Below are positions 20,535-36,530 of a DNA stretch of 64,000 nucleotides, in pieces. Each line of letters begins with the position of its first letter. Positions within the stretch are counted from its first letter, which is position 1. The notes below the pieces were generated by a model. The model made no database searches. It was not told the origin of the DNA and saw only the letters and a program-made list of their open reading frames with translations. Location of the stretch: assembly GCF_041248615.1 (NCBI RefSeq), contig NZ_CP158426.1; one strand, 5' to 3'. The position numbers were made by a program, and so were the translations under genes. This stretch comes from Escherichia coli. Its GTDB lineage: Bacteria; Pseudomonadota; Gammaproteobacteria; Enterobacterales; Enterobacteriaceae.

Positions 20535-20841
20535 GATGAAGGAAAAGCCGAGGGGCGTCAACCGAAAAATGACCAATGATGGTGAGGAAAAATCAGGGAA
20601 GTTGAAAAAAACTCATCTTAATTAGAGGCGATAAAAGATTTCTCTATAGCGCAATCCACCTCGCACGTTTTGACTGATATTCTGACAACACAGCGACACC
20701 TGGGCTTATTCGAAAAACAACGTCCTGCCACCGGATGGTGATGCTAAGGCATCTGATTCGGCCTGCGCCCTCGCGTAGGCCGAATACTGGATCTGCAAAA
20801 TCAACTGGTAACAAACAGATGAATCAACTCAATACGTACTT

Positions 20842-22395
20842 TTACTTGATATCTTTCACGCGCATACCGTTGATCTGTTCATCCGTGATGGTGTTACCCG
20901 CTTTGAAGTAATCAACCACGGCGTGATAAACGTAATAACCGCCCGTTGTGTTACGCGCTTTCCCTTCGGTAAAGGCGGTAAAACCATCTCCACCATCAGC
21001 AAGGAAACTCTGAGTAGCAATGTGGTAAATCGTCGCATCTTCAATGGGTTTGCCATTCAGAGTCAGCGTGATTACCCGCTGACCAACCGGCTTACTGCTG
21101 TCGTACTTCATTTCCAGGCCTTTCGATACCTGTAAAACGCCATTACTTAAACTTGCGCCGTGTTCCATCAAACTGCGTAATTGTTTACCCGTGAGATCCA
21201 TCGTCACCAGTTCGTTGGGAAACGGGAAGGTACTGATGACGCCGCCCATCGTAATCGCCCCTGCGGGGATCTCATTGCGAATGCCGCCAGAGTTGGTTAA
21301 CGCCAATTGGGTGTTTTTACCCGCCGCTACCAGTAAAGCATCAGCCGCCAGGTTCCCGAGGGAAGCCGATTCACCATAGGCACGTTTTAATTCAACCGGC
21401 GATTTCGCGACCGTTTGTTGCACCACTTCATCAAGCTTTTTATTCCAGCCGTCGATCACCTGTTTTGTTTGCGGATCGGGCTTCCACTCGTCGGCGTAAA
21501 TGGTTTTAAGCTCGAAGTTTTTCACCGTAAAATCATGCGGCTTCTCTTTGTAGTCGAGAACCAGTTTGCCCACATCAATCCCGCCGCTGTCAGTGGAGAG
21601 GATGAGCGTATTGCCGACTTTAATCGGTTCCGGCGTACCCACATGCGCATGTCCGGTGATCAAAATATCCAGCCCTTTCACCTGACTTGCCGTCTGAATA
21701 TCTTTATCCAGCGCGCGACGCACATCTGTGCCTCCCATACTGGACTGGCGGGCCGGAACACCTTCATGGATCAGGGCGACGGTCAAATCAACCTTGCCTT
21801 TAAGTTCATCGATATAACGTTGTAGCCATTTAATTTCATCACGCGCTTCAATCCCCACTCGCGTTGCCGCAGATACCGTGTCATTAAAGGCAAATACACC
21901 GTGCAAACCTATAACGCCTATTTTCACTCCGTCTTTTTCGATGATGGTATATGGCTTATCCCAGAATGATTTACTGCTGTTCTGATAAAAAACATTGCCC
22001 TGCACAATAGGGAATTTTGCCTGACTCAACTGTAATAATGTGTTGTCCCAGCCGTGGTCAAATTCATGGTTGCCTATCGTGACGGCATCAAACGGCATAG
22101 TATTCATAATATCGATAATAGCCTTACCTTTGGTCAGGCTGCTGATATATGGCCCGGTAAAATAATCACCCGCATCAAAAAACCATGTCGCTTTATTTTT
22201 TGCTTTTTCTTGCTTAACCAGCGTAGTGATATTTGCCCAGCCGCCAATATCCCGTTTACCATCAGCGATCCACGGCACTTTATAAGGCTCGACATGCGCA
22301 TGGAGGTCGTTGGTATAAATGATGGTGACATCTTTGGCGCAAGCCCAAAACGGCAGTGTTAATGCGATACCCGCAGCAAGTATTTTAATTTTCAT
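20842..22395 (-). CDS. Secreted bifunctional metallophosphoesterase/5'-nucleotidase family protein (UshA/CpdB-like), 517 aa
   Basis: ORF 20842..22395; N-terminal signal peptide [20 protein letters not shown]; calcineurin-like motifs NDLHAH, GDYFTG, GNHEFD, GHAH; C-terminal 5'-nucleotidase-type substrate domain. No equivalent gene between metF and metL in K-12 as I recall. Confidence 0.75.
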
Positions 22396-22527
22396 AAACA
22401 GTCCCTTTCAGTGAGATAAAGGATTGCTACATTACGTTCTGAAAGAGTTATTTATGTGAGAGTAATCACATCCACAGGGGAGCGTTGCCGGACAAAATCA
22501 ACGACCATGTGAAATCGTTGGTGATAT

Positions 22528-23658
22528 ATGTCGACTCTGTTTACGATTAATGCCTGCAAGTCGTTTGGTTGCCGTAATTTAGGGCAGCCAACATCTAAAG
22601 ATTATAGCTGGCCCGACTATCGGCTGGGTTATCCGGCATTGCACTGTCGGGCATGTGGCAGTTACCCGCCGTTGTTTGACGAGCAACAATTTCGTGACTG
22701 GTTGTCAGTTCACTTATCTACTTTTGCAACAGAGAAAGGCCATTTTTGCCCGGTATGTTATGGCACAAAGACGATTTGTTATGGCCACAATCCACAGGGG
22801 TCGCAACGCATTCAATGTCGTAACTGCAAAAAAGTCTGGACACCTAAACAATATCAGAAAGAAATAACGCCTCCTGAAATAATCGAAACGGTTGCTCTTC
22901 TGGTGCCATTTCAGGGAGCCAGCAATGGGCAGAAACTGTATGTTTTAATCAGTTTTGATGCTCTTCGCGGTAATATTCTTCATCTTTCTACTAATTACAC
23001 GCAGCATCAGGCTGGAGAAAGTCTGCATTATCGATACAGAGGGAATGCAGAACCAGAGTTACACGAGAGTAATATTGTACAACGCGTTGATATGCGCGAA
23101 GCACAATTTCTACGCCGCAGTCAGTTTGATGAAATTCAGTATGGCAGCGCAGCGCTCAAACGCAATGCTAAAGGTGTTATTCTGCGTCCGGTTATCACTG
23201 CACACGGGCATTTCAGAGTACTGAATATTTTATTCCCTACAGTAAAAACACATGTAATTTCACACGAGTGTTTTTTAAGAGGTGCGATTATTACGGCCTG
23301 GGCAGAACTGTTTCGCCAACAGCAAGGTGAGATTTGGTTTATTGAAGAGGAAATAGCTGACTATACCGATAATACGCCCTGGCGTTTTCAGGGAAAAACT
23401 TATCACGGCTGGTGGAAAAATCAGTGGCAACTCTGGGTTCAGGGCAAAAATCGTAAAATGGTATGTGCATTAACGGGCGGAAATATCAGCAAAGCTGAAA
23501 TGCTCTCTTTAGCAACCAGCAGACATTTTATCGACTGGCTACATAAACAAGCAGTATTTACTCACAGCGCCCCGCTTTCCGCAGGGCGCGTTACGCAAAT
23601 ACTGCTTTCTCTGGCTCAGGATTACAACAACTGCGCCAGGCGGTTAATATCCGACTGA
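22528..23658 (+). CDS. Uncharacterised 376-aa protein with N-terminal Cys-rich zinc-ribbon region (transposase InsA/IS1595-type)
   Basis: ORF 22528..23658; motifs C-x4-C, C-x2-C and CPVC-x17-QRIQCRNCKKVW resembling IS1 InsA and IS1595 zinc ribbons; no obvious DDE triad; 3' end overlaps the convergent metL stop by about 37 bp. Confidence 0.55.
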   Translation: MSTLFTINACKSFGCRNLGQPTSKDYSWPDYRLGYPALHCRACGSYPPLFDEQQFRDWLSVHLSTFATEKGHFCPVCYGTKTICYGHNPQGSQRIQCRNCKKVWTPKQYQKEITPPEIIETVALLVPFQGASNGQKLYVLISFDALRGNILHLSTNYTQHQAGESLHYRYRGNAEPELHESNIVQRVDMREAQFLRRSQFDEIQYGSAALKRNAKGVILRPVITAHGHFRVLNILFPTVKTHVISHECFLRGAIITAWAELFRQQQGEIWFIEEEIADYTDNTPWRFQGKTYHGWWKNQWQLWVQGKNRKMVCALTGGNISKAEMLSLATSRHFIDWLHKQAVFTHSAPLSAGRVTQILLSLAQDYNNCARRLISD

Positions 23659-28623: not shown

Positions 28624-28896
28624 ATGGTCACAGTTAACCTTCATTGTCCCCGTTGCCAGTCCGTTCAGGTTTACCGTCACGGGCAGAACCCCAAAAGACA
28701 TGATCGATTCCGCGGCCGTGACTGTCACCGGGTATTTCAGCTCAGTTACTGTTACGAGCCCCGTAAACCAGGAGTTAAAGACCAAATCGCTGAAATGGCT
28801 TTCAACGGTGCCGGGGTTCGCTATACTGCCCTTACGCTGAAAATCGGCATTAATACAGTCATCCGAACTTTAAAAAACTCTCGCCACGAAAAATAA
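28624..28896 (+). CDS. insA: IS1-family InsA-like zinc-ribbon protein, 90 aa
   Basis: ORF 28624..28896; CPRC-x17-CHRVFQ zinc ribbon plus HTH region (GAGVRYTALTLKIGINTVIRTLKNS); roughly 40% identity to canonical IS1 InsA by eye. Confidence 0.75.
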   Translation: MVTVNLHCPRCQSVQVYRHGQNPKRHDRFRGRDCHRVFQLSYCYEPRKPGVKDQIAEMAFNGAGVRYTALTLKIGINTVIRTLKNSRHEK

Positions 28897-28922
28897 CGTC
28901 ATCCCCGGTCGCTCATGCTGAT

Positions 28923-29330
28923 GTGGCACTCATCTGCGAACTTAGTCAGCAATGGAGCTTTGTCGGCAGTAAAGCGCGACAGCACTGGCTCTGGTACGTG
29001 TACAACACGAAAACTGGTGGTGTTCTGGCCTACACTTTTGGCCCCCGGACTGATGAAACCTGTCGTGAACTGCTGGCGCTGCTTACCCTTTTACCATCGG
29101 CATGTTGACCACTGACGAATGGGGTAGTTACGCTAGAGAGTTACCAAAGGAGAAGCATCTGACTGGTAAGATTTTTACTCAGCACATTGAGCGTAACAAT
29201 CTGACCCTGAGAACCCGAATCAAACGTCTGGCCCGCAGAACCATCTGTTTCTCGCGTTCTGTAGAACTTCATGAAAAAGTCATCGGTGCTTTTATCGAAA
29301 ATATATGTTCTACTAATTGGAGTCATCACC
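28923..29330 (+). pseudogene. insB: IS1-family insB-like transposase segment, split across two frames
   Basis: InsB-like sequence in ORF 28923..29108 (EQWSFVGSKARQHWLWYVY) continues in another frame in ORF 29102..29416 (TDEWGSY...RSVELHEKVIG); frame break near 29100; the second ORF reads through the IS end. Confidence 0.6.
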
Positions 29331-29385
29331 CTTCTGATGAGCTTTCCTTGGATGATTACCAGACTGAATACACAGCCAAAGATTT

Positions 29386-29709
29386 TTACCTCATTCTGCT
29401 CTTTTTTCTCAAATGACATATATTATATTTTACATCATATTCATAGGCATATGACATTCCCCCGCCCCCCATTATGTCATTGTGGGTTGATGTTGGGCTT
29501 TCATAAAAAAATACATCTTTTTTTGAACTAGCATTAATTATATTTACTTTATATATTAAAATATTTTCTCCATCTGGAAATATTTTAGCCACACAATATA
29601 AAGCAGCTAAATCCGAATTACTTAAAAATATATTGTCATCACTCATAACTCCAGCCATTAAATGACTGGAGACTAAAGCAAGGAAATAACAACATTGTAT
29701 TACCTTCAT
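29386..29709 (-). CDS. Putative Rhs immunity protein, 107 aa, with N-terminal hydrophobic signal or anchor
   Basis: Native ATG at 29709 lies 1 nt after the reconstructed native rhs stop (TAA, 29713..29711). N-terminus MKVIQCCYFLALVSSHLMAGV; AT-rich DNA. ORF-track entry 29386..29769 is extended into IS5. Confidence 0.55.
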   Translation of the reverse strand: MKVIQCCYFLALVSSHLMAGVMSDDNIFLSNSDLAALYCVAKIFPDGENILIYKVNIINASSKKDVFFYESPTSTHNDIMGGGGMSYAYEYDVKYNICHLRKKSRMR

Positions 29710-29754
29710 TTTAATTACTCCCTTGCCTGATAATTGTAACTCCATTCCCTTTAG

Positions 29755-30950
<1,196 letters not shown>

Positions 30951-33900
30951 TTAGCTTTGGGATTATATTTTAGATAGGTGTTATTTGGTGTTCCCAAGTA
31001 ACTACTGTATTCTTTTTTTCCCATTCCATTCATATAAGAATTCGTTAAATCTTTGCTTGAAAAATTTAGACTATCATAAACATCATTTTCTTTTGTTACT
31101 TTATTGCCTTTATCGTCAGAGTAAAAACCGTGAGTGTGATAATCGCCTACTCTCTCTGAACCTTCAGGGCATTTTATATTTCGCAAGTCTACACTATCAT
31201 TATCATTTGAACTTATCGGATTCATGGGGAAATATTCACCTTGCTTCTTACATATTAGCCCACCATATTCTTTATTCTCGTTAATTGATTCTCCATTACA
31301 CATTGCCAATGCAAATATTCCAATATCATCTATATTTTTTGATTTAAATTCATATAATCCTAATGGATCTATATTTGAGATCGGATTCAACGGATACTGA
31401 TAAAAATTCCATCCCCCCTTCAGCCCAATCGGATCCTGAGTGATATACCGCCCCTGCAGCGGGTCATAATAGCGGTGGCGGTTGTAATAGAGGCCGGACT
31501 CCTCATCATACTGCTGACCCGGCAGGCGGATGAGCTGCTGCAGCTGGTGCGGGTTCTCTTCATTCAGCAGGTTGCCCCATTCATCGTATTCTGCGCACCA
31601 TTCTGTTGCCCCTTCCGTGCTGACAAGCGCCAGCGGCAGGCCGCGATGGTCGCAGTGGTACAGGTGGATTTTTCGCGCCGGCGTGTACACCGGGTCCATC
31701 TGGTTTTGTATCTGCTCCACCGTCAGGCCGCACGATGCCAGCCAGCGGCGGCTTTCCTCACTCACCCGGTCAGCCAGGATTTCACTTTCCAGCCGGTCGA
31801 GCATCTGCACCAGCACCGGCGGGAACACCACACTGCCACCGTCTTCACCGCCGGACTGCTGAAGCGCATCCGCCAGGCTGCGGCGCTGCGTTTTCGCCAG
31901 CTCACCGGTGGCAGTTTCAACTCTGATGAGTGGCGTGAAGCTCCCCGGCTGATAAACCGTCTGGATGCGGGTTCTGTCGTTCTGTATTGTGGTCAGCCGG
32001 TCGCCGTCCCAGCCGTACCAGGGCACTTCCGGTTTCCATGACAGCGACATCCAGCCCGTCAGGTCCCGTTCACGCCGCCATACCCGTTTTGCCACCCTGC
32101 GGCCCAGCAGGTCGTAAAGATAGCGACTTTCGACCAGCGGCTCTGCATATTGTGTCCGCGTGTAGTGCACCAGCCGGTGCCGGCTGTCGTAATGGTACCG
32201 GTGAGTCCGCTCATCATCCGTGCGGATAACCCCTTCCGGGATGAGGTCGGTTTTCTCCGTCAGCCTGCCGTGACGGTCATACCGGTAAAGATAGTGCGCG
32301 TCACGGGCGATACGGTTATCCGGCCATGCGCTGAGGGGGCTGTCCGGGTGCAGCTCCGGGTCGGGCAGGCGGTTGCCCGCCGGGTCCGTGGCATACGGGA
32401 TGCGGATATCAAGGTTCGCTGCCGTGGTGTGGACGCCGGTCAGCCTGCCGGTGTCGCTGTAGCTGTAACTCCGGGTCTGGCGCGGGCTGCTGATGCGGAT
32501 GAGTTCGCCGTTGTCGTTCCAGGTGTAATCGCGGTCATACTGCAGGCTGTTCAGGTGCTGGCTCTGTAACTGCCCGGCAGGGGTGTAAGCGGTGGTGAGT
32601 TCATAACGGCCGAAGCTGCGCAGCGTTTCCCGGTGCAGGCGGTCGCGGGTGAAATCCACCAGCGGTGTGTCGCCGAGTTTCATGCCTGACAGCCAGCCGC
32701 TGCCGTAGGTCAGCCATTCCACGGCGGGCAGGCTGTCCGGTATACAGCGGTTCGCCAGTCCCTGCGCGTTGTACGCATGTCTGGTTTCATGCTGCCAGAG
32801 CAGTGCTTCCGTCTGCGGGTGATGCACCGTCTGGCGCTCACCGGTCAGGCGGCCTTTCTCATCATACCCGTAATGCACCGTCACCCGGTGGCCTTCGCTG
32901 AGATGGCTGATTTGTGTCAGCCAGCCGCGTTCGTCGTACCGCCACTGTTCTGCGGTTTCACCATTCACCGTTCGCTGTGTGATGCGGTCTGCTTCGTCAT
33001 AGTGCCAGTGGGTGACCAGCCCCTCATCCTCGCTGCGGATAAGTTTGCCGGTCAGGTCGTGGTGATAACGCTGTGTGCGGCCGTCAAAGCCGGTTTCCTG
33101 TATCAGCCGGTCGAGTACATCGTAACGGAAGGTGGTGTGGCTGCCGTTTTCACTGGTCAGGCGGATGACCCGTCCGGCAGCATCGTATTCCATACTGCGC
33201 GTCAGACCACCCTGCGTGGTACGGATGGCCTTTCCCCACGTATCGTACTGTGTCCCGTTTCTGCTGCCGTCCGGGGCAATGACGGCGGTCAGGTCACCGG
33301 CGGCGTTGTATTCATACCGCGTTTCATGGCCCTGCATGTCTTTCACCGCAATTAACTGTCCACGGCTGTCGTATGCGCGGTACTGGCTCAGGCCTTCCTC
33401 GCGGTGCACCGTCGTCACCTGACCAAAACGGTCATGGTCATAGCGGGTTACATAACCGGAACAGTCGGTAAAGCTCAGCAACTGACCGTAACGGCTCCAC
33501 GTCATGGTTTTCCGGCTGCCGGTGGCATCTTCCGTTGCGCAGGGGAAGTCACTGTGTGGATTATCATAACGGTAGCGGGTGATATCGCCGTCAGGGGCGG
33601 TTTCCTGAATCAGACGGCCGGATTCATCATATTCCCGGCGTATTTCCAGCCCGTCAGTCCCGGTGGCTGACGTTAACTGGCTGTGGTGGTTATAGTAAAA
33701 CGCCGATGCCCTGCCATCCGGCGTGGTGATGCGCGTGATGAGGCCCGTCACCACATCCGGGCTGTATTCTGTTGTCCGGCCTGCGGCATCCGTCTGTGCC
33801 TTAAGCCTGCCCACCGCATCAAACTGACTCTGCGTGACGCTGCCGTCCGCGTGTTCCTTTTTCACCACCCGCTTCAGCCCGCCTTCGCCCTGCGTGTGCA

Positions 33901-34092
33901 GCACTTCACGGCGGTCCAGACTGTCGGTGATGGTGATGCGGTCTTTCTCATACTGATACGTGTAGCTTAAGCCTGCCGGGTTTAGCTGCTCTGTCACCCG
34001 CCCGTCGCTGTCGTAACGGTAACGGATTTCCGGCCGGCCCGCGCGGTGGTTGAACTGCACCCCAAATGTTGGACATAATCTGACATCTGAAG

Positions 34093-34623
34093 GTGCAGTT
34101 TATGAAACATTCATTTGAAGTAAAACTTGCCGCTGTAAATCATTACCTGGCTGGTCATGCAGGCATCATTTCTACGGCAAAACTCTTTCAACTTTCTCAC
34201 ACCAGCCTCTCACACTGGATTAATCTTTTTCTTCTTCACGGTCCTCGGGCACTGGATTGCAGACACAAGCGTAGCTATTCTCCTGAAGATAAACTTTGCG
34301 TGGTTCTTTATGCTCTCGGGCATTCTGAGTCTCTACCCCGGGTAGCTGCCCGGTTTAACATTCCCAGCCACAACACGGTTAAAAACTGGATAAAAGGCTA
34401 CCGCAAATCTGGTAATGAGGCCTTTATCAGGCGCAGGAAGGAGAAAAGCATGACCCGTTCTGATGATACCCATGAAAACGAGGCAAACATGACGCCGGAA
34501 GAGATGAAGAATGAGCTGCGTTATCTTCGCGCAGAAAATGCATATCTGAAAGCCATGCAGGAGCATCTCCTGGAAAAAAAGCGCCAGGAGCTGGAGAAAA
34601 AACGAAAGTCATCCGGAGCCTGA
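34093..34623 (+). CDS. IS3-family transposase OrfA (HTH), 176 aa
   Basis: ORF 34093..34623; HTH and leucine-zipper-like region; slippery heptamer near its 3' end. Confidence 0.85.
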
Positions 34624-34727
34624 GGTGCGGACACTGCCAGTCTGACCTGTTAAAGGCTGCAGGGCTGGCCAGAAGCACGCTGTACTACCAGCTGTCACTG
34701 CAGAAGGCTAAGGACAAGTATGCTGAT

Positions 34728-36530
<1,803 letters not shown>

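Follow-up and report, generated by a model that had tools for sequence, protein, structure and literature searches.

A predicted periplasmic 5'-nucleotidase between metL and metF of Escherichia coli, paired with a transposase-like protein and probably serving nucleotide scavenging

In the window (the whole 64,000-nucleotide stretch of Escherichia coli DNA that was analysed), a nucleotidase gene and a divergent gene for a transposase-like protein share a short control region within an islet of the metL-metF spacer (Table 1). The nucleotidase open reading frame starts with ATG on the minus strand, is intact and fills 20842..22395 exactly; the plus strand over the same positions gives a translation riddled with stops. 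A Shine-Dalgarno-like AAGGGA precedes the ATG by 7 nt, and RefSeq names the product 'bifunctional metallophosphatase/5'-nucleotidase' (WP_000694075.1).

Table 1. Features of the metL-metF islet, in coordinates of the window
Feature	Coordinates	Strand	Basis and remarks
3010-bp islet in place of 197 bp of the K-12 metL-metF spacer	20611..23620		blastn of the K-12 locus against the window
REP-like palindrome	20756..20785		inverted repeat I7, 13-nt arms 92% complementary; within the 231 bp that follow the nucleotidase stop codon
Nucleotidase CDS (517 aa, stop codon included)	20842..22395	-	ORF list, translation, Pfam, PDB identity, RefSeq
5'-nucleotidase C-terminal substrate-binding domain, aa 335-477, with R373, F392, F464, D470	20965..21393	-	PF02872; columns invariant with UshA and paralogues
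Metallophosphoesterase domain, aa 24-252, with D30, H32, D77, N109, H110, D113, H210, H249, H251	21640..22326	-	PF00149, UshA alignment
Predicted Sec signal peptide, codons 1-20, with A-C-A signal peptidase I site	22336..22395	-	sequence inspection; PDB construct start; Cys not conserved
Divergent control region, nucleotidase gene/neighbour gene, 132 bp	22396..22527		sequence; conserved blocks in 7-species alignment
Perfect CRP consensus site TGTGAGAGTAATCACA	22455..22470		pattern TGTGA-N6-TCACA; ~68 bp upstream of the nucleotidase ATG
Inverted repeat CAACGA-N10-TCGTTG, candidate operator	22499..22520		just upstream of the neighbour gene ATG
'Cytoplasmic protein' CDS, 376 aa	22528..23658	+	two InsA-like Cys4 zinc ribbons, plus an RNase H-like fold; final 37 nt overlap the metL 3' end

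Pfam divides the nucleotidase into an N-terminal Metallophos domain (PF00149, residues 24-252, E 4e-12) and a C-terminal 5_nucleotid_C domain (PF02872, residues 335-477, E 1e-38). The metal motifs read NDLHAH (D30, H32), DAGD (D77), GNHEFD (N109, H110, D113) and GHAH (H249, H251) and are joined by H210; in the same order along the chain, these residues align to D41, H43, D84, N116, H117, D120, H217, H252 and Q254 of K-12 UshA. The catalytic His-Asp dyad is present, as H110/D113 of the GNHEFD motif correspond to UshA H117/D120. R373, F392, F464 and D470 of the C-terminal domain align to UshA R410, F429, F498 and D504, and the aromatic clamp F392/F464, together with R373 and D470, is invariant across the nucleotidase, UshA and the paralogues described below. 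No arginine aligns with the phosphate-binding R375 and R379 of UshA, R338 being the only one nearby, and the substrate preference may therefore differ from that of UshA.

By inspection, the 20 residues of the N-terminus, which KD follows, run from a basic n-region through a hydrophobic core to an A-x-A signal peptidase I site. The signal contains a cysteine, but this is not conserved: since the Enterobacter orthologue reads FWASA at the cleavage region, we do not take it for a lipobox. Neither a lipobox nor a surface anchor was found in the sequence or in its orthologue, both being consistent with a plain signal peptidase I signal. The crystallised construct discussed below begins at residue 19/20, which agrees with the signal peptide being removed. 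Judged from its sequence, the nucleotidase is a periplasmic protein exported by Sec and cleaved by signal peptidase I. Pfam, sequence and the UshA alignment thus bear out the original prediction of a secreted phosphoesterase with a signal peptide, all four metal motifs and a C-terminal 5'-nucleotidase domain.

The nucleotidase is predicted to be a secreted dinuclear-metal phosphoesterase of the 5'-nucleotidase (UshA/CD73) superfamily. To call orthology, whole-protein scores were set against the curated NCBIfam equivalog cutoffs. UshA was rejected (NF007109, 152 bits against a cutoff of 600), the best stretch covering only residues 21-251 and identity to K-12 UshA being 24%. CpdB was rejected as well (NF006938 and TIGR01390, 102 and 100 bits against 486 and 883; N-terminal domain only), as were SoxB and NadN (153 and 134 bits against 550 and 436). 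YfkN-type multifunctional nucleotidases are built of two fused phosphoesterase modules and are about 1200-1450 aa long; NF006934 and related models reached 184 bits against a cutoff of 1646, only the second module being matched (profile positions 629-1097), and this class was also dismissed. Apart from PDB 3IVD, the whole protein is nearest to Thermus and CD73-type 5'-nucleotidases: the Thermus thermophilus 5'-nucleotidase (2Z1A, E 2.5e-46) and human CD73 (E about 1e-32) match it over the full length and share its GHxH motif, the homology being distant in both cases. CD73 is GPI-anchored and dimeric, whereas nothing in the nucleotidase points to either property. With E. coli UshA it shares the two-domain architecture, the periplasmic location, the metal ligands, the His-Asp dyad, the Phe clamp and one Arg, but UshA has GHSQ in place of GHAH and carries insertions (~255-275 and 300-320) that the nucleotidase lacks. 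These comparisons place the protein in a predicted subfamily of its own, neither UshA nor CpdB. That it is no simple orthologue of either had been anticipated; the label 'UshA/CpdB-like' stands as far as the 5'-nucleotidase family is concerned and is weaker in its CpdB, or cyclic-nucleotide, half, where the models match the N-terminal domain only.

The protein has already been crystallised. PDB 3IVD/3IVE ('Nucleotidase') is 98% identical, differing at ~10 of the 499 aligned residues (19-517; bit score 1114), and is essentially the same protein, an allelic variant of another strain. We take these entries to be c4898 of E. coli CFT073, deposited by structural genomics with uridine and cytidine bound and without a paper. 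A literature search on c4898, 3IVD, 3IVE and metL/metF/nucleotidase returned only the BEN2908 genome paper, and no enzymology, expression, kinetics or physiology for this protein. The available text of that 2026 paper describes, between metL and metF of the APEC strain BEN2908, a region 'GR 31' with three UshA-like ORFs, reports the locus in ExPEC strains including BEN2908, UTI89 and RS218, and proposes that it is a nucleoside processing and transport unit (PMC12928451). Its ORF 431 (1554 bp, with a 'UshA' conserved-domain match and 28% identity to YfkN; PMC12928451) occupies the same locus and corresponds to the nucleotidase gene of the window, which is accordingly already in the literature. 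GR 31 is the 7.8-kb long form of the islet, with two additional nucleotidases and a Tsx homologue, whereas the window holds the 3.0-kb short form. The 376-aa neighbour, the CRP site and the cross-genus synteny are not discussed in the available text (PMC12928451).

As predicted, the nucleotidase gene is accessory in E. coli: it is carried, in single copy, by 1843 of 5426 complete genomes. The long form of the islet (metF-5'NT-hyp-5'NT-5'NT-Tsx-metL) occurs in 659 of the 5426; its Tsx call lies above the NCBIfam cutoff, and its three nucleotidase paralogues are 57-68% identical. The same gene pair is found between metL and metF in Escherichia, Citrobacter, Klebsiella, Salmonella, Kluyvera, Kosakonia and Phytobacter, which is its location in about 24 of the 37 enterobacterial species loci, and it also occupies at least one other chromosomal position, beside an arylsulfotransferase. 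Environmental and plant-associated genera (Kosakonia, Phytobacter, Rahnella, Silvania) have the module too. G+C is only mildly low (0.479 for the nucleotidase gene and 0.449 for its neighbour, against 0.52-0.59 in the flanks), neither border of the islet showed inverted or direct repeats, and the IS and RHS cluster of the window is more than 5 kb away, past metL, metB, metJ and yiiX. The horizontally acquired context that had been proposed did not survive these observations: we reject a recently acquired genomic island given the missing border repeats, the mild G+C deviation, the single copy and a metL-metF site that is kept across genera. Plasmid mobility was also considered, as tblastn matches in Salmonella, Citrobacter and 'Pseudomonas' looked like plasmid copies, and was dropped; the two plasmid records inspected carry metJ-metB-metL...metF together with katG or priA/rpmE/ppc, and for that reason we read them as misfiled chromosomal contigs. 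Because its metL-metF position is common to many genera, the module appears to be an old enterobacterial one, probably lost from some E. coli lineages such as K-12. The 197-bp K-12 spacer has no islet remnants and no residual similarity to the islet, so the direction, loss or gain, is read solely from the cross-genus synteny.

The control region between the two genes holds two conserved elements. The CRP pattern has its sole match in the 64-kb window here (0.02 expected); the site is kept in the 7 aligned species, and 34 of 36 orthologous loci have it at a constant position with no more than one mismatch. A consensus site at a suitable upstream distance, as for a cAMP-CRP-dependent promoter, is thus at hand, and its placement relative to the transcription start is one that we infer. 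Promoters regulated by CytR have tandem CRP sites about 52-53 bp apart with the CytR operator between them. Here, a weak second half-match (TGTGAAATCGTTGGTG), picked out by eye and with several mismatches, is centred 53 bp from the CRP site and falls on the conserved inverted repeat; inspection of the control region by eye showed no clear CytR octamers. The inverted repeat itself, CAACGA-N10-TCGTTG, occurs once in the window (0.06 expected), and 29 of 36 loci have it at a constant distance with no more than one mismatch. Considered as a possible RNA element, it matched no Rfam family and its folding energy is no better than that of shuffles (z = -0.2). Since its variation across loci is confined to the left arm, compensatory change is absent.

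The neighbour is paired with the nucleotidase in 36 of 36 informative genomes and is single-copy in 1874 E. coli genomes. It shares with IS1-family transposases (InsA/InsAB') an InsA-like zinc ribbon, CPxC...GxNPxGxxRxxCxxC, with an RNase H-like fold after it, and several databases label its relatives 'IS1 family transposase'. It differs from them in lacking a canonical DDE triad and inverted repeats, in being single-copy and syntenic, and in having an extra N-terminal Cys4 ribbon. The only conserved acidic columns are D144 (75%), D201 (86%) and E247 (100%), the first two at non-canonical positions, and the canonical beta1 and beta4 carboxylates, judged from secondary-structure position, are replaced by T121 and R220/P221. 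With no DDE triad, no inverted repeats and one copy per genome, we reject an active DDE (IS1-family) transposase. PHROGs match only the zinc ribbon, and a Foldseek search of the PDB yielded nothing beyond weak RNase H-like similarities (PIWI, NurA, EndoV). A family profile run against PDB sequences returned only eukaryotic C2H2 zinc fingers, which we set aside as a matter of Cys/His spacing rather than homology. Apart from the zinc ribbons the protein has no recognised DNA-binding regulator domain, and a literature search for a domesticated IS1 regulator found nothing relevant. The coupling of the nucleotidase to this protein, which combines zinc ribbons with an RNase H-like fold that lacks a conserved DDE triad, is a new observation. 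The neighbour may be a transposase-derived DNA-binding regulator of the module.

We consider it likely that the nucleotidase is a Sec-exported periplasmic 5'-nucleotidase of CRP-controlled nucleotide scavenging, and one half of an old two-gene enterobacterial module whose other half is the presumed regulator. This reading is favoured because the long islet adds two paralogues and Tsx, the CRP site is perfect and conserved, and neither protein matches PADLOC; the nucleotidase would most likely scavenge nucleotides when sugar is scarce. In UshA and CD73, two metal ions of the N-terminal domain activate a water molecule and the His-Asp dyad assists. By analogy, two metals in the N-terminal domain of the nucleotidase would activate water with the help of the His110-Asp113 dyad, while Phe392 and Phe464 of the C-terminal domain would sandwich the nucleoside moiety and Arg373 would contact the phosphate. 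Closure of the domains would then unite substrate and metals and yield nucleoside and phosphate. Nucleotides that are unable to cross the inner membrane would in this way become nucleosides, which could be taken up and used as fuel. cAMP-CRP probably activates transcription at a class-II-type promoter, so that a shortage of preferred carbon would lead to production of the enzyme. Simple scavenging looks redundant, since E. coli already has UshA, CpdB and AphA. The protein is a crystallised fourth periplasmic nucleotidase that sets about a third of E. coli, ExPEC included, apart from K-12; models of how nucleotides and phosphate are scavenged in the gut and urinary tract would be refined if its substrates were known, and for the nucleotidase itself little changes. 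What goes beyond the existing annotation is a locus that appears ancestral in Enterobacteriaceae rather than an acquired island, a textbook CRP site and an invariable coupling to a transposase-like protein.

A more specialised substrate had been suggested at the outset, and the relatives CdnP, CpdB and NadN of this superfamily do hydrolyse signalling nucleotides. The nucleotidase could accordingly act on cyclic di- or oligonucleotides, 2',3'-cNMPs or NAD-derived signals, for immune evasion, phage defence or counter-defence. Its accessory status, its three diverged paralogues, which suggest divided substrate ranges, and a match to the uncharacterised phage family phrog_19584 (PHROGs, E 4e-50) would fit such a role, as would its being common to ExPEC model strains (PMC12928451). 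The context lends it no support, however: besides the missing PADLOC matches, neither defence nor phage genes adjoin the gene, its linkage is to nucleotidase paralogues and a Tsx channel, and the promoter has a conserved catabolite (CRP) signature. The nucleoside clamp and catalytic residues are, moreover, those of a standard 5'-nucleotidase, and CpdB-type models reach only the N-terminal domain. We therefore regard this specialised role as unlikely.

Surface 5'-nucleotidases of Gram-positive pathogens make immunosuppressive adenosine. A host-directed virulence enzyme of this kind, forming adenosine from host ATP/AMP, might be read from the homology to CD73 and ecto-5'-nucleotidases, from the crystallised protein presumably being c4898 of CFT073 and from the presence of the gene in the ExPEC strains BEN2908, UTI89 and RS218 (PMC12928451), but it is highly improbable given that the signal, of plain signal peptidase I type and devoid of lipobox or anchor, would keep the protein periplasmic and that the module is conserved in Kosakonia, Phytobacter, Rahnella and Silvania. 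That the islet is a recent mobile unit, in which an active IS1-like transposase (the neighbour) carries the nucleotidase as a passenger, is scarcely credible: the InsA-type zinc ribbon, the RNase H-like fold resembling DDE transposases, the database labels, the two or more chromosomal positions and the lower G+C of both genes speak for it, and against them stand the single copy, the borders free of terminal inverted repeats, the syntenic position kept across many genera, the non-canonical acidic columns with the replaced beta1 and beta4 carboxylates, and relatives that adjoin different nucleoside genes rather than identical cargo.

Returning to a regulatory role for the neighbour, its distant relatives adjoin nupC and deoD, or deoB, deoD and a nucleoside permease, or stand directly downstream of another 5'-nucleotidase. 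The locus scan used a narrower family alignment, and for the distant (Vibrio-type) relatives the sample is limited to eight individual look-ups. A CRP-like site (at most one mismatch) was present in 11 of 12 promoter regions of distant relatives, against a background of 0.08 per kb; the enterobacterial inverted repeat was not found beside them. We tentatively suggest, as a possibility that falls short of a favoured one, that while the nucleotidase is ordinary, the neighbour defines an unrecognised family. This would be transposase-derived, with two InsA-type Cys4 ribbons and an RNase H-like domain that has lost the DDE triad, and would have been domesticated in Enterobacterales and Vibrionales into proteins that regulate CRP-dependent periplasmic scavenging operons or sense their ligands, CAACGA-N10-TCGTTG being the enterobacterial operator. 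Should the neighbour prove to be a regulator, it would provide a clean bacterial example of a transposase domesticated into a metabolic transcription factor. The operons beside family members are not confined to 5'-nucleotidases, nupC/deoD and deoB/deoD/nucleoside permease: one distant branch adjoins an arylsulfatase and its maturase instead of nucleoside genes.

The nucleotidase open reading frame fills its interval exactly, and the plus-strand translation of 20842-22395 has stops throughout. As predicted, the protein carries a signal peptide, four metal-binding motifs and a C-terminal domain, all evident from the minus-strand reading frame, Pfam and an alignment with K-12 UshA (Table). Its N-terminus has the features typical of a signal peptidase I substrate, with the mature part beginning KD; the Enterobacter orthologue has Ser in place of the signal-peptide Cys, so this is no lipobox. 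Residues 19-517 are 98% identical to PDB 3IVD/3IVE (deposit title "Nucleotidase"), which we take to be structural-genomics deposits of the E. coli CFT073 protein c4898 in complex with uridine and cytidine; the crystallised construct begins at residue 19/20, and a literature search for the two entries turned up no paper. The next solved relative is the Thermus thermophilus 5'-nucleotidase (E 2.5e-46), followed by snake-venom and human CD73 enzymes (about 1e-32 to 1e-35), UshA (about 1e-23, chiefly the N-terminal domain) and CpdB fragments (about 1e-12 to 1e-14). No named NCBIfam family reaches its curated cutoff, all scoring far below: UshA 152 bits (cutoff 600), CpdB 102 (486), NadN 134 (436), SoxB 153 (550) and YfkN-type 184 (1646). 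Together with 24% identity to K-12 UshA, these scores place the protein in a separate subfamily of the 5'-nucleotidase superfamily, and its catalytic machinery is intact. It is an orthologue of neither UshA nor CpdB. The subfamily is common across Enterobacteriaceae and extends to Vibrio at about 56% identity.

Features of the islet and its surroundings (window positions) and of the nucleotidase (residues; UshA equivalents from alignment with the K-12 protein)
Feature	Position	Details
Islet	20611-23620	3010 bp, in place of 197 bp of K-12 metL-metF spacer
REP-like palindrome	20756-20785	ATTCGGCCTGCGC...GCGTAGGCCGAAT; islet-specific DNA downstream of nucleotidase gene
Nucleotidase gene	20842-22395	minus strand, 517 aa, ATG start
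CRP site	22455-22470	TGTGAGAGTAATCACA
Inverted repeat	22499-22520	CAACGA-N10-TCGTTG, just upstream of neighbour's ATG
Neighbour gene	22528-23658	plus strand, 376 aa
Neighbour/metL 3' overlap	23622-23658	37 nt
RHS element	about 28624-36530	between yiiX and rpmE
IS1H, frameshifted	about 28624-29316	in RHS element; RefSeq annotation of identical strain
ISKpn26 / IS5-like	29823-30803	in RHS element; RefSeq annotation of identical strain
IS1397 / IS3-like	about 34102-35450	in RHS element; RefSeq annotation of identical strain
Metallophos	residues 24-252	Pfam, E 4e-12
5_nucleotid_C	residues 335-477	Pfam, E 1e-38
Aligned residues	D30 / H32	UshA D41 / H43
Aligned residue	D77	UshA D84
Aligned residues	N109 / H110 / D113	UshA N116 / H117 / D120
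Extra His ligand	H210	UshA H217
Aligned residues	H249 / H251	UshA H252 / Q254
Aligned residue	R373	UshA R410
Aligned residue	F392	UshA F429
Aligned residue	F464	UshA F498
Aligned residue	D470	UshA D504

The window derives from an E. coli chromosome, the nucleotidase interval being 100% identical to NZ_LT599825.1, where the gene order is katG-metF-[islet]-metL-metB-metJ-yiiX. Two genes make up the islet, the nucleotidase and a divergent neighbour annotated as "cytoplasmic protein", which converges on metL. The K-12 border falls exactly on the metL stop codon, and the K-12 spacer, unrelated to islet DNA, has REP-like palindromes of its own. Of 5426 complete E. coli genomes, 1843 carry the nucleotidase gene, which bears out its description as accessory, and 1874 the neighbour gene, each in one copy. 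A long form of the islet, ordered metF-5'NT(517)-hyp(374)-5'NT(516)-5'NT(539)-Tsx-metL, occurs in 659 of the 5426. In one such locus (L004, 5053-10557, from an E. coli contig of Logan SRR16677015) two nucleotidase paralogues, with 57% and 68% identity to the window protein, and a Tsx-family nucleoside channel come after the neighbour on its own strand; one of the paralogues carries an Asn/Asp-rich insertion of 20 residues. The long form is "GR 31" of the 2026 BEN2908 paper, which describes three UshA-like ORFs, among them ORF 431, the window nucleotidase gene, with a Tsx homologue, and proposes a unit for nucleoside processing and transport (PMC12928451).

Citrobacter freundii, Salmonella enterica and Klebsiella also have this pair between metL and metF; the sequences used for Salmonella and Klebsiella are classed as plasmids, yet they are clearly chromosomal contigs. 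Both records look misassigned: the Salmonella "plasmid unnamed1" (L014, NZ_CP092913.1) carries the core genes metJ, metB, metL, metF and katG, and the "Pseudomonas sp. A2" plasmid (L015, NZ_CP039131.1) carries metJ, metB, metL, metF, priA, rpmE and ppc, with protein accessions that suggest enterobacterial gene content, probably Klebsiella. Scanning a single genome for each species gave 37 module loci in at least 14 genera, and a nucleotidase homologue lies immediately upstream of, and divergent from, the neighbour in 36 of the 36 with upstream DNA available. About 24 of the 37 are at metL-metF (Escherichia spp., Pseudocitrobacter, Citrobacter, Klebsiella, Kosakonia, Phytobacter, Superficieibacter, Kluyvera, S. 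arizonae); the remainder adjoin an arylsulfotransferase gene (Enterobacter, Pluralibacter, Silvania), some with extra paralogues and a Tsx gene, and the Cronobacter module likewise adjoins one. Two copies of the module occur in E. coli SCPM-O-B-8794, Escherichia sp. MOD1-EC7003, Citrobacter sp. wls619 and a Citrobacter MAG (locus pairs L021/L028, L022/L047, L039/L048, L023/L053), one at metL-metF and the second elsewhere, with extra paralogues and Tsx in three of the four.

Against the horizontally acquired context of the original prediction, or a mobile one, stand the metL-metF synteny shared across many genera, islet borders in which no repeats were found, and a G+C content that is only mildly low (0.479 for the nucleotidase and 0.449 for the neighbour, versus 0.52-0.59 in flanking genes); the window's IS and RHS cluster sits past metL, metB, metJ and yiiX and is unrelated to the islet. 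Most parsimoniously, the module would be ancestral in enterobacteria and lost by lineages such as K-12. The RHS element itself is interrupted by three insertion sequences.

The 132-bp spacer between the divergent genes holds a perfect CRP consensus (TGTGA-N6-TCACA), the single one in the 64-kb window (0.02 expected), about 68 bp upstream of the nucleotidase ATG. The site is kept in E. coli, Citrobacter, Salmonella and Klebsiella, has one mismatch in Enterobacter and Cronobacter, and is found with at most one mismatch at a fixed distance in 34 of 36 orthologous loci. About 30 bp downstream of its centre the coding strand reads as a -10-like hexamer (TAATGT / CGTAAT), a spacing that would fit a class II CRP promoter. 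The inverted repeat near the neighbour's start, a candidate operator, occurs once in the window (0.06 expected) and with at most one mismatch in 29 of 36 loci; its right arm is invariant in nearly all of them while the left arm varies. It could alternatively be a 5'-UTR hairpin. Folded as RNA, its stability does not exceed that of shuffled sequence, and it has no Rfam match.

With the nucleotidase gene already known from the PDB, RefSeq annotation and a 2026 genome paper, the part worth pursuing is its partner family, putatively transposase-derived. The neighbour has no significant Pfam domain, and its sole sequence signal is a weak match to the IS1 InsA-type zinc ribbon. It contains two InsA-like Cys4 zinc ribbons and an RNase H-like domain that is modelled with confidence and resembles DDE transposases and integrases. 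Its family is a small one, with 119 representatives at 50% identity, many of which are fragments; R197 and H228 are invariant throughout, N156, Y168, Y205, P221, H246, E247, W296 and W300 nearly so, and the sole conserved acidic columns are D144, D201 and E247. No DDE triad is conserved, and secondary-structure position suggests that T121 and R220/P221 occupy the first two carboxylate positions. The gene's single copy, its synteny and its lack of inverted repeats and of the triad make an active transposase unlikely. Tentatively, the neighbour may be a transposase-like protein that has been domesticated and serves as a DNA-binding regulator.

The nucleotidase is most likely a periplasmic broad-range 5'-nucleotidase under cAMP-CRP control. 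From nucleotides outside the cell or in the periplasm it would release phosphate and nucleosides that can be imported, and in the long-form islet it would cooperate with the paralogous enzymes and the Tsx-type channel. The specialised signalling or phage-related substrate raised earlier has no contextual support, there being no PADLOC match, no adjoining defence genes and canonical clamp residues.

The neighbour also has more distant relatives (25-35% identity), whose adjoining genes score above NCBIfam cutoffs for the families named here. One is divergent from nupC and deoD, another from deoB, deoD and a nucleoside permease, and further ones directly follow other 5'-nucleotidases. A CRP-like site with at most one mismatch is present in 11 of 12 of their promoter regions, versus 0.08 per kb in the window. 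One branch that is more distant still (loci L056/L057, 6001-9842; 404 aa, about 26% identity) is instead convergent with genes for an anaerobic sulfatase maturase and an arylsulfatase, so that the family's link would be to periplasmic scavenging generally and not strictly to nucleosides. This branch and the arylsulfotransferase-adjoining modules possibly reflect a recurring link to sulfate-ester metabolism.
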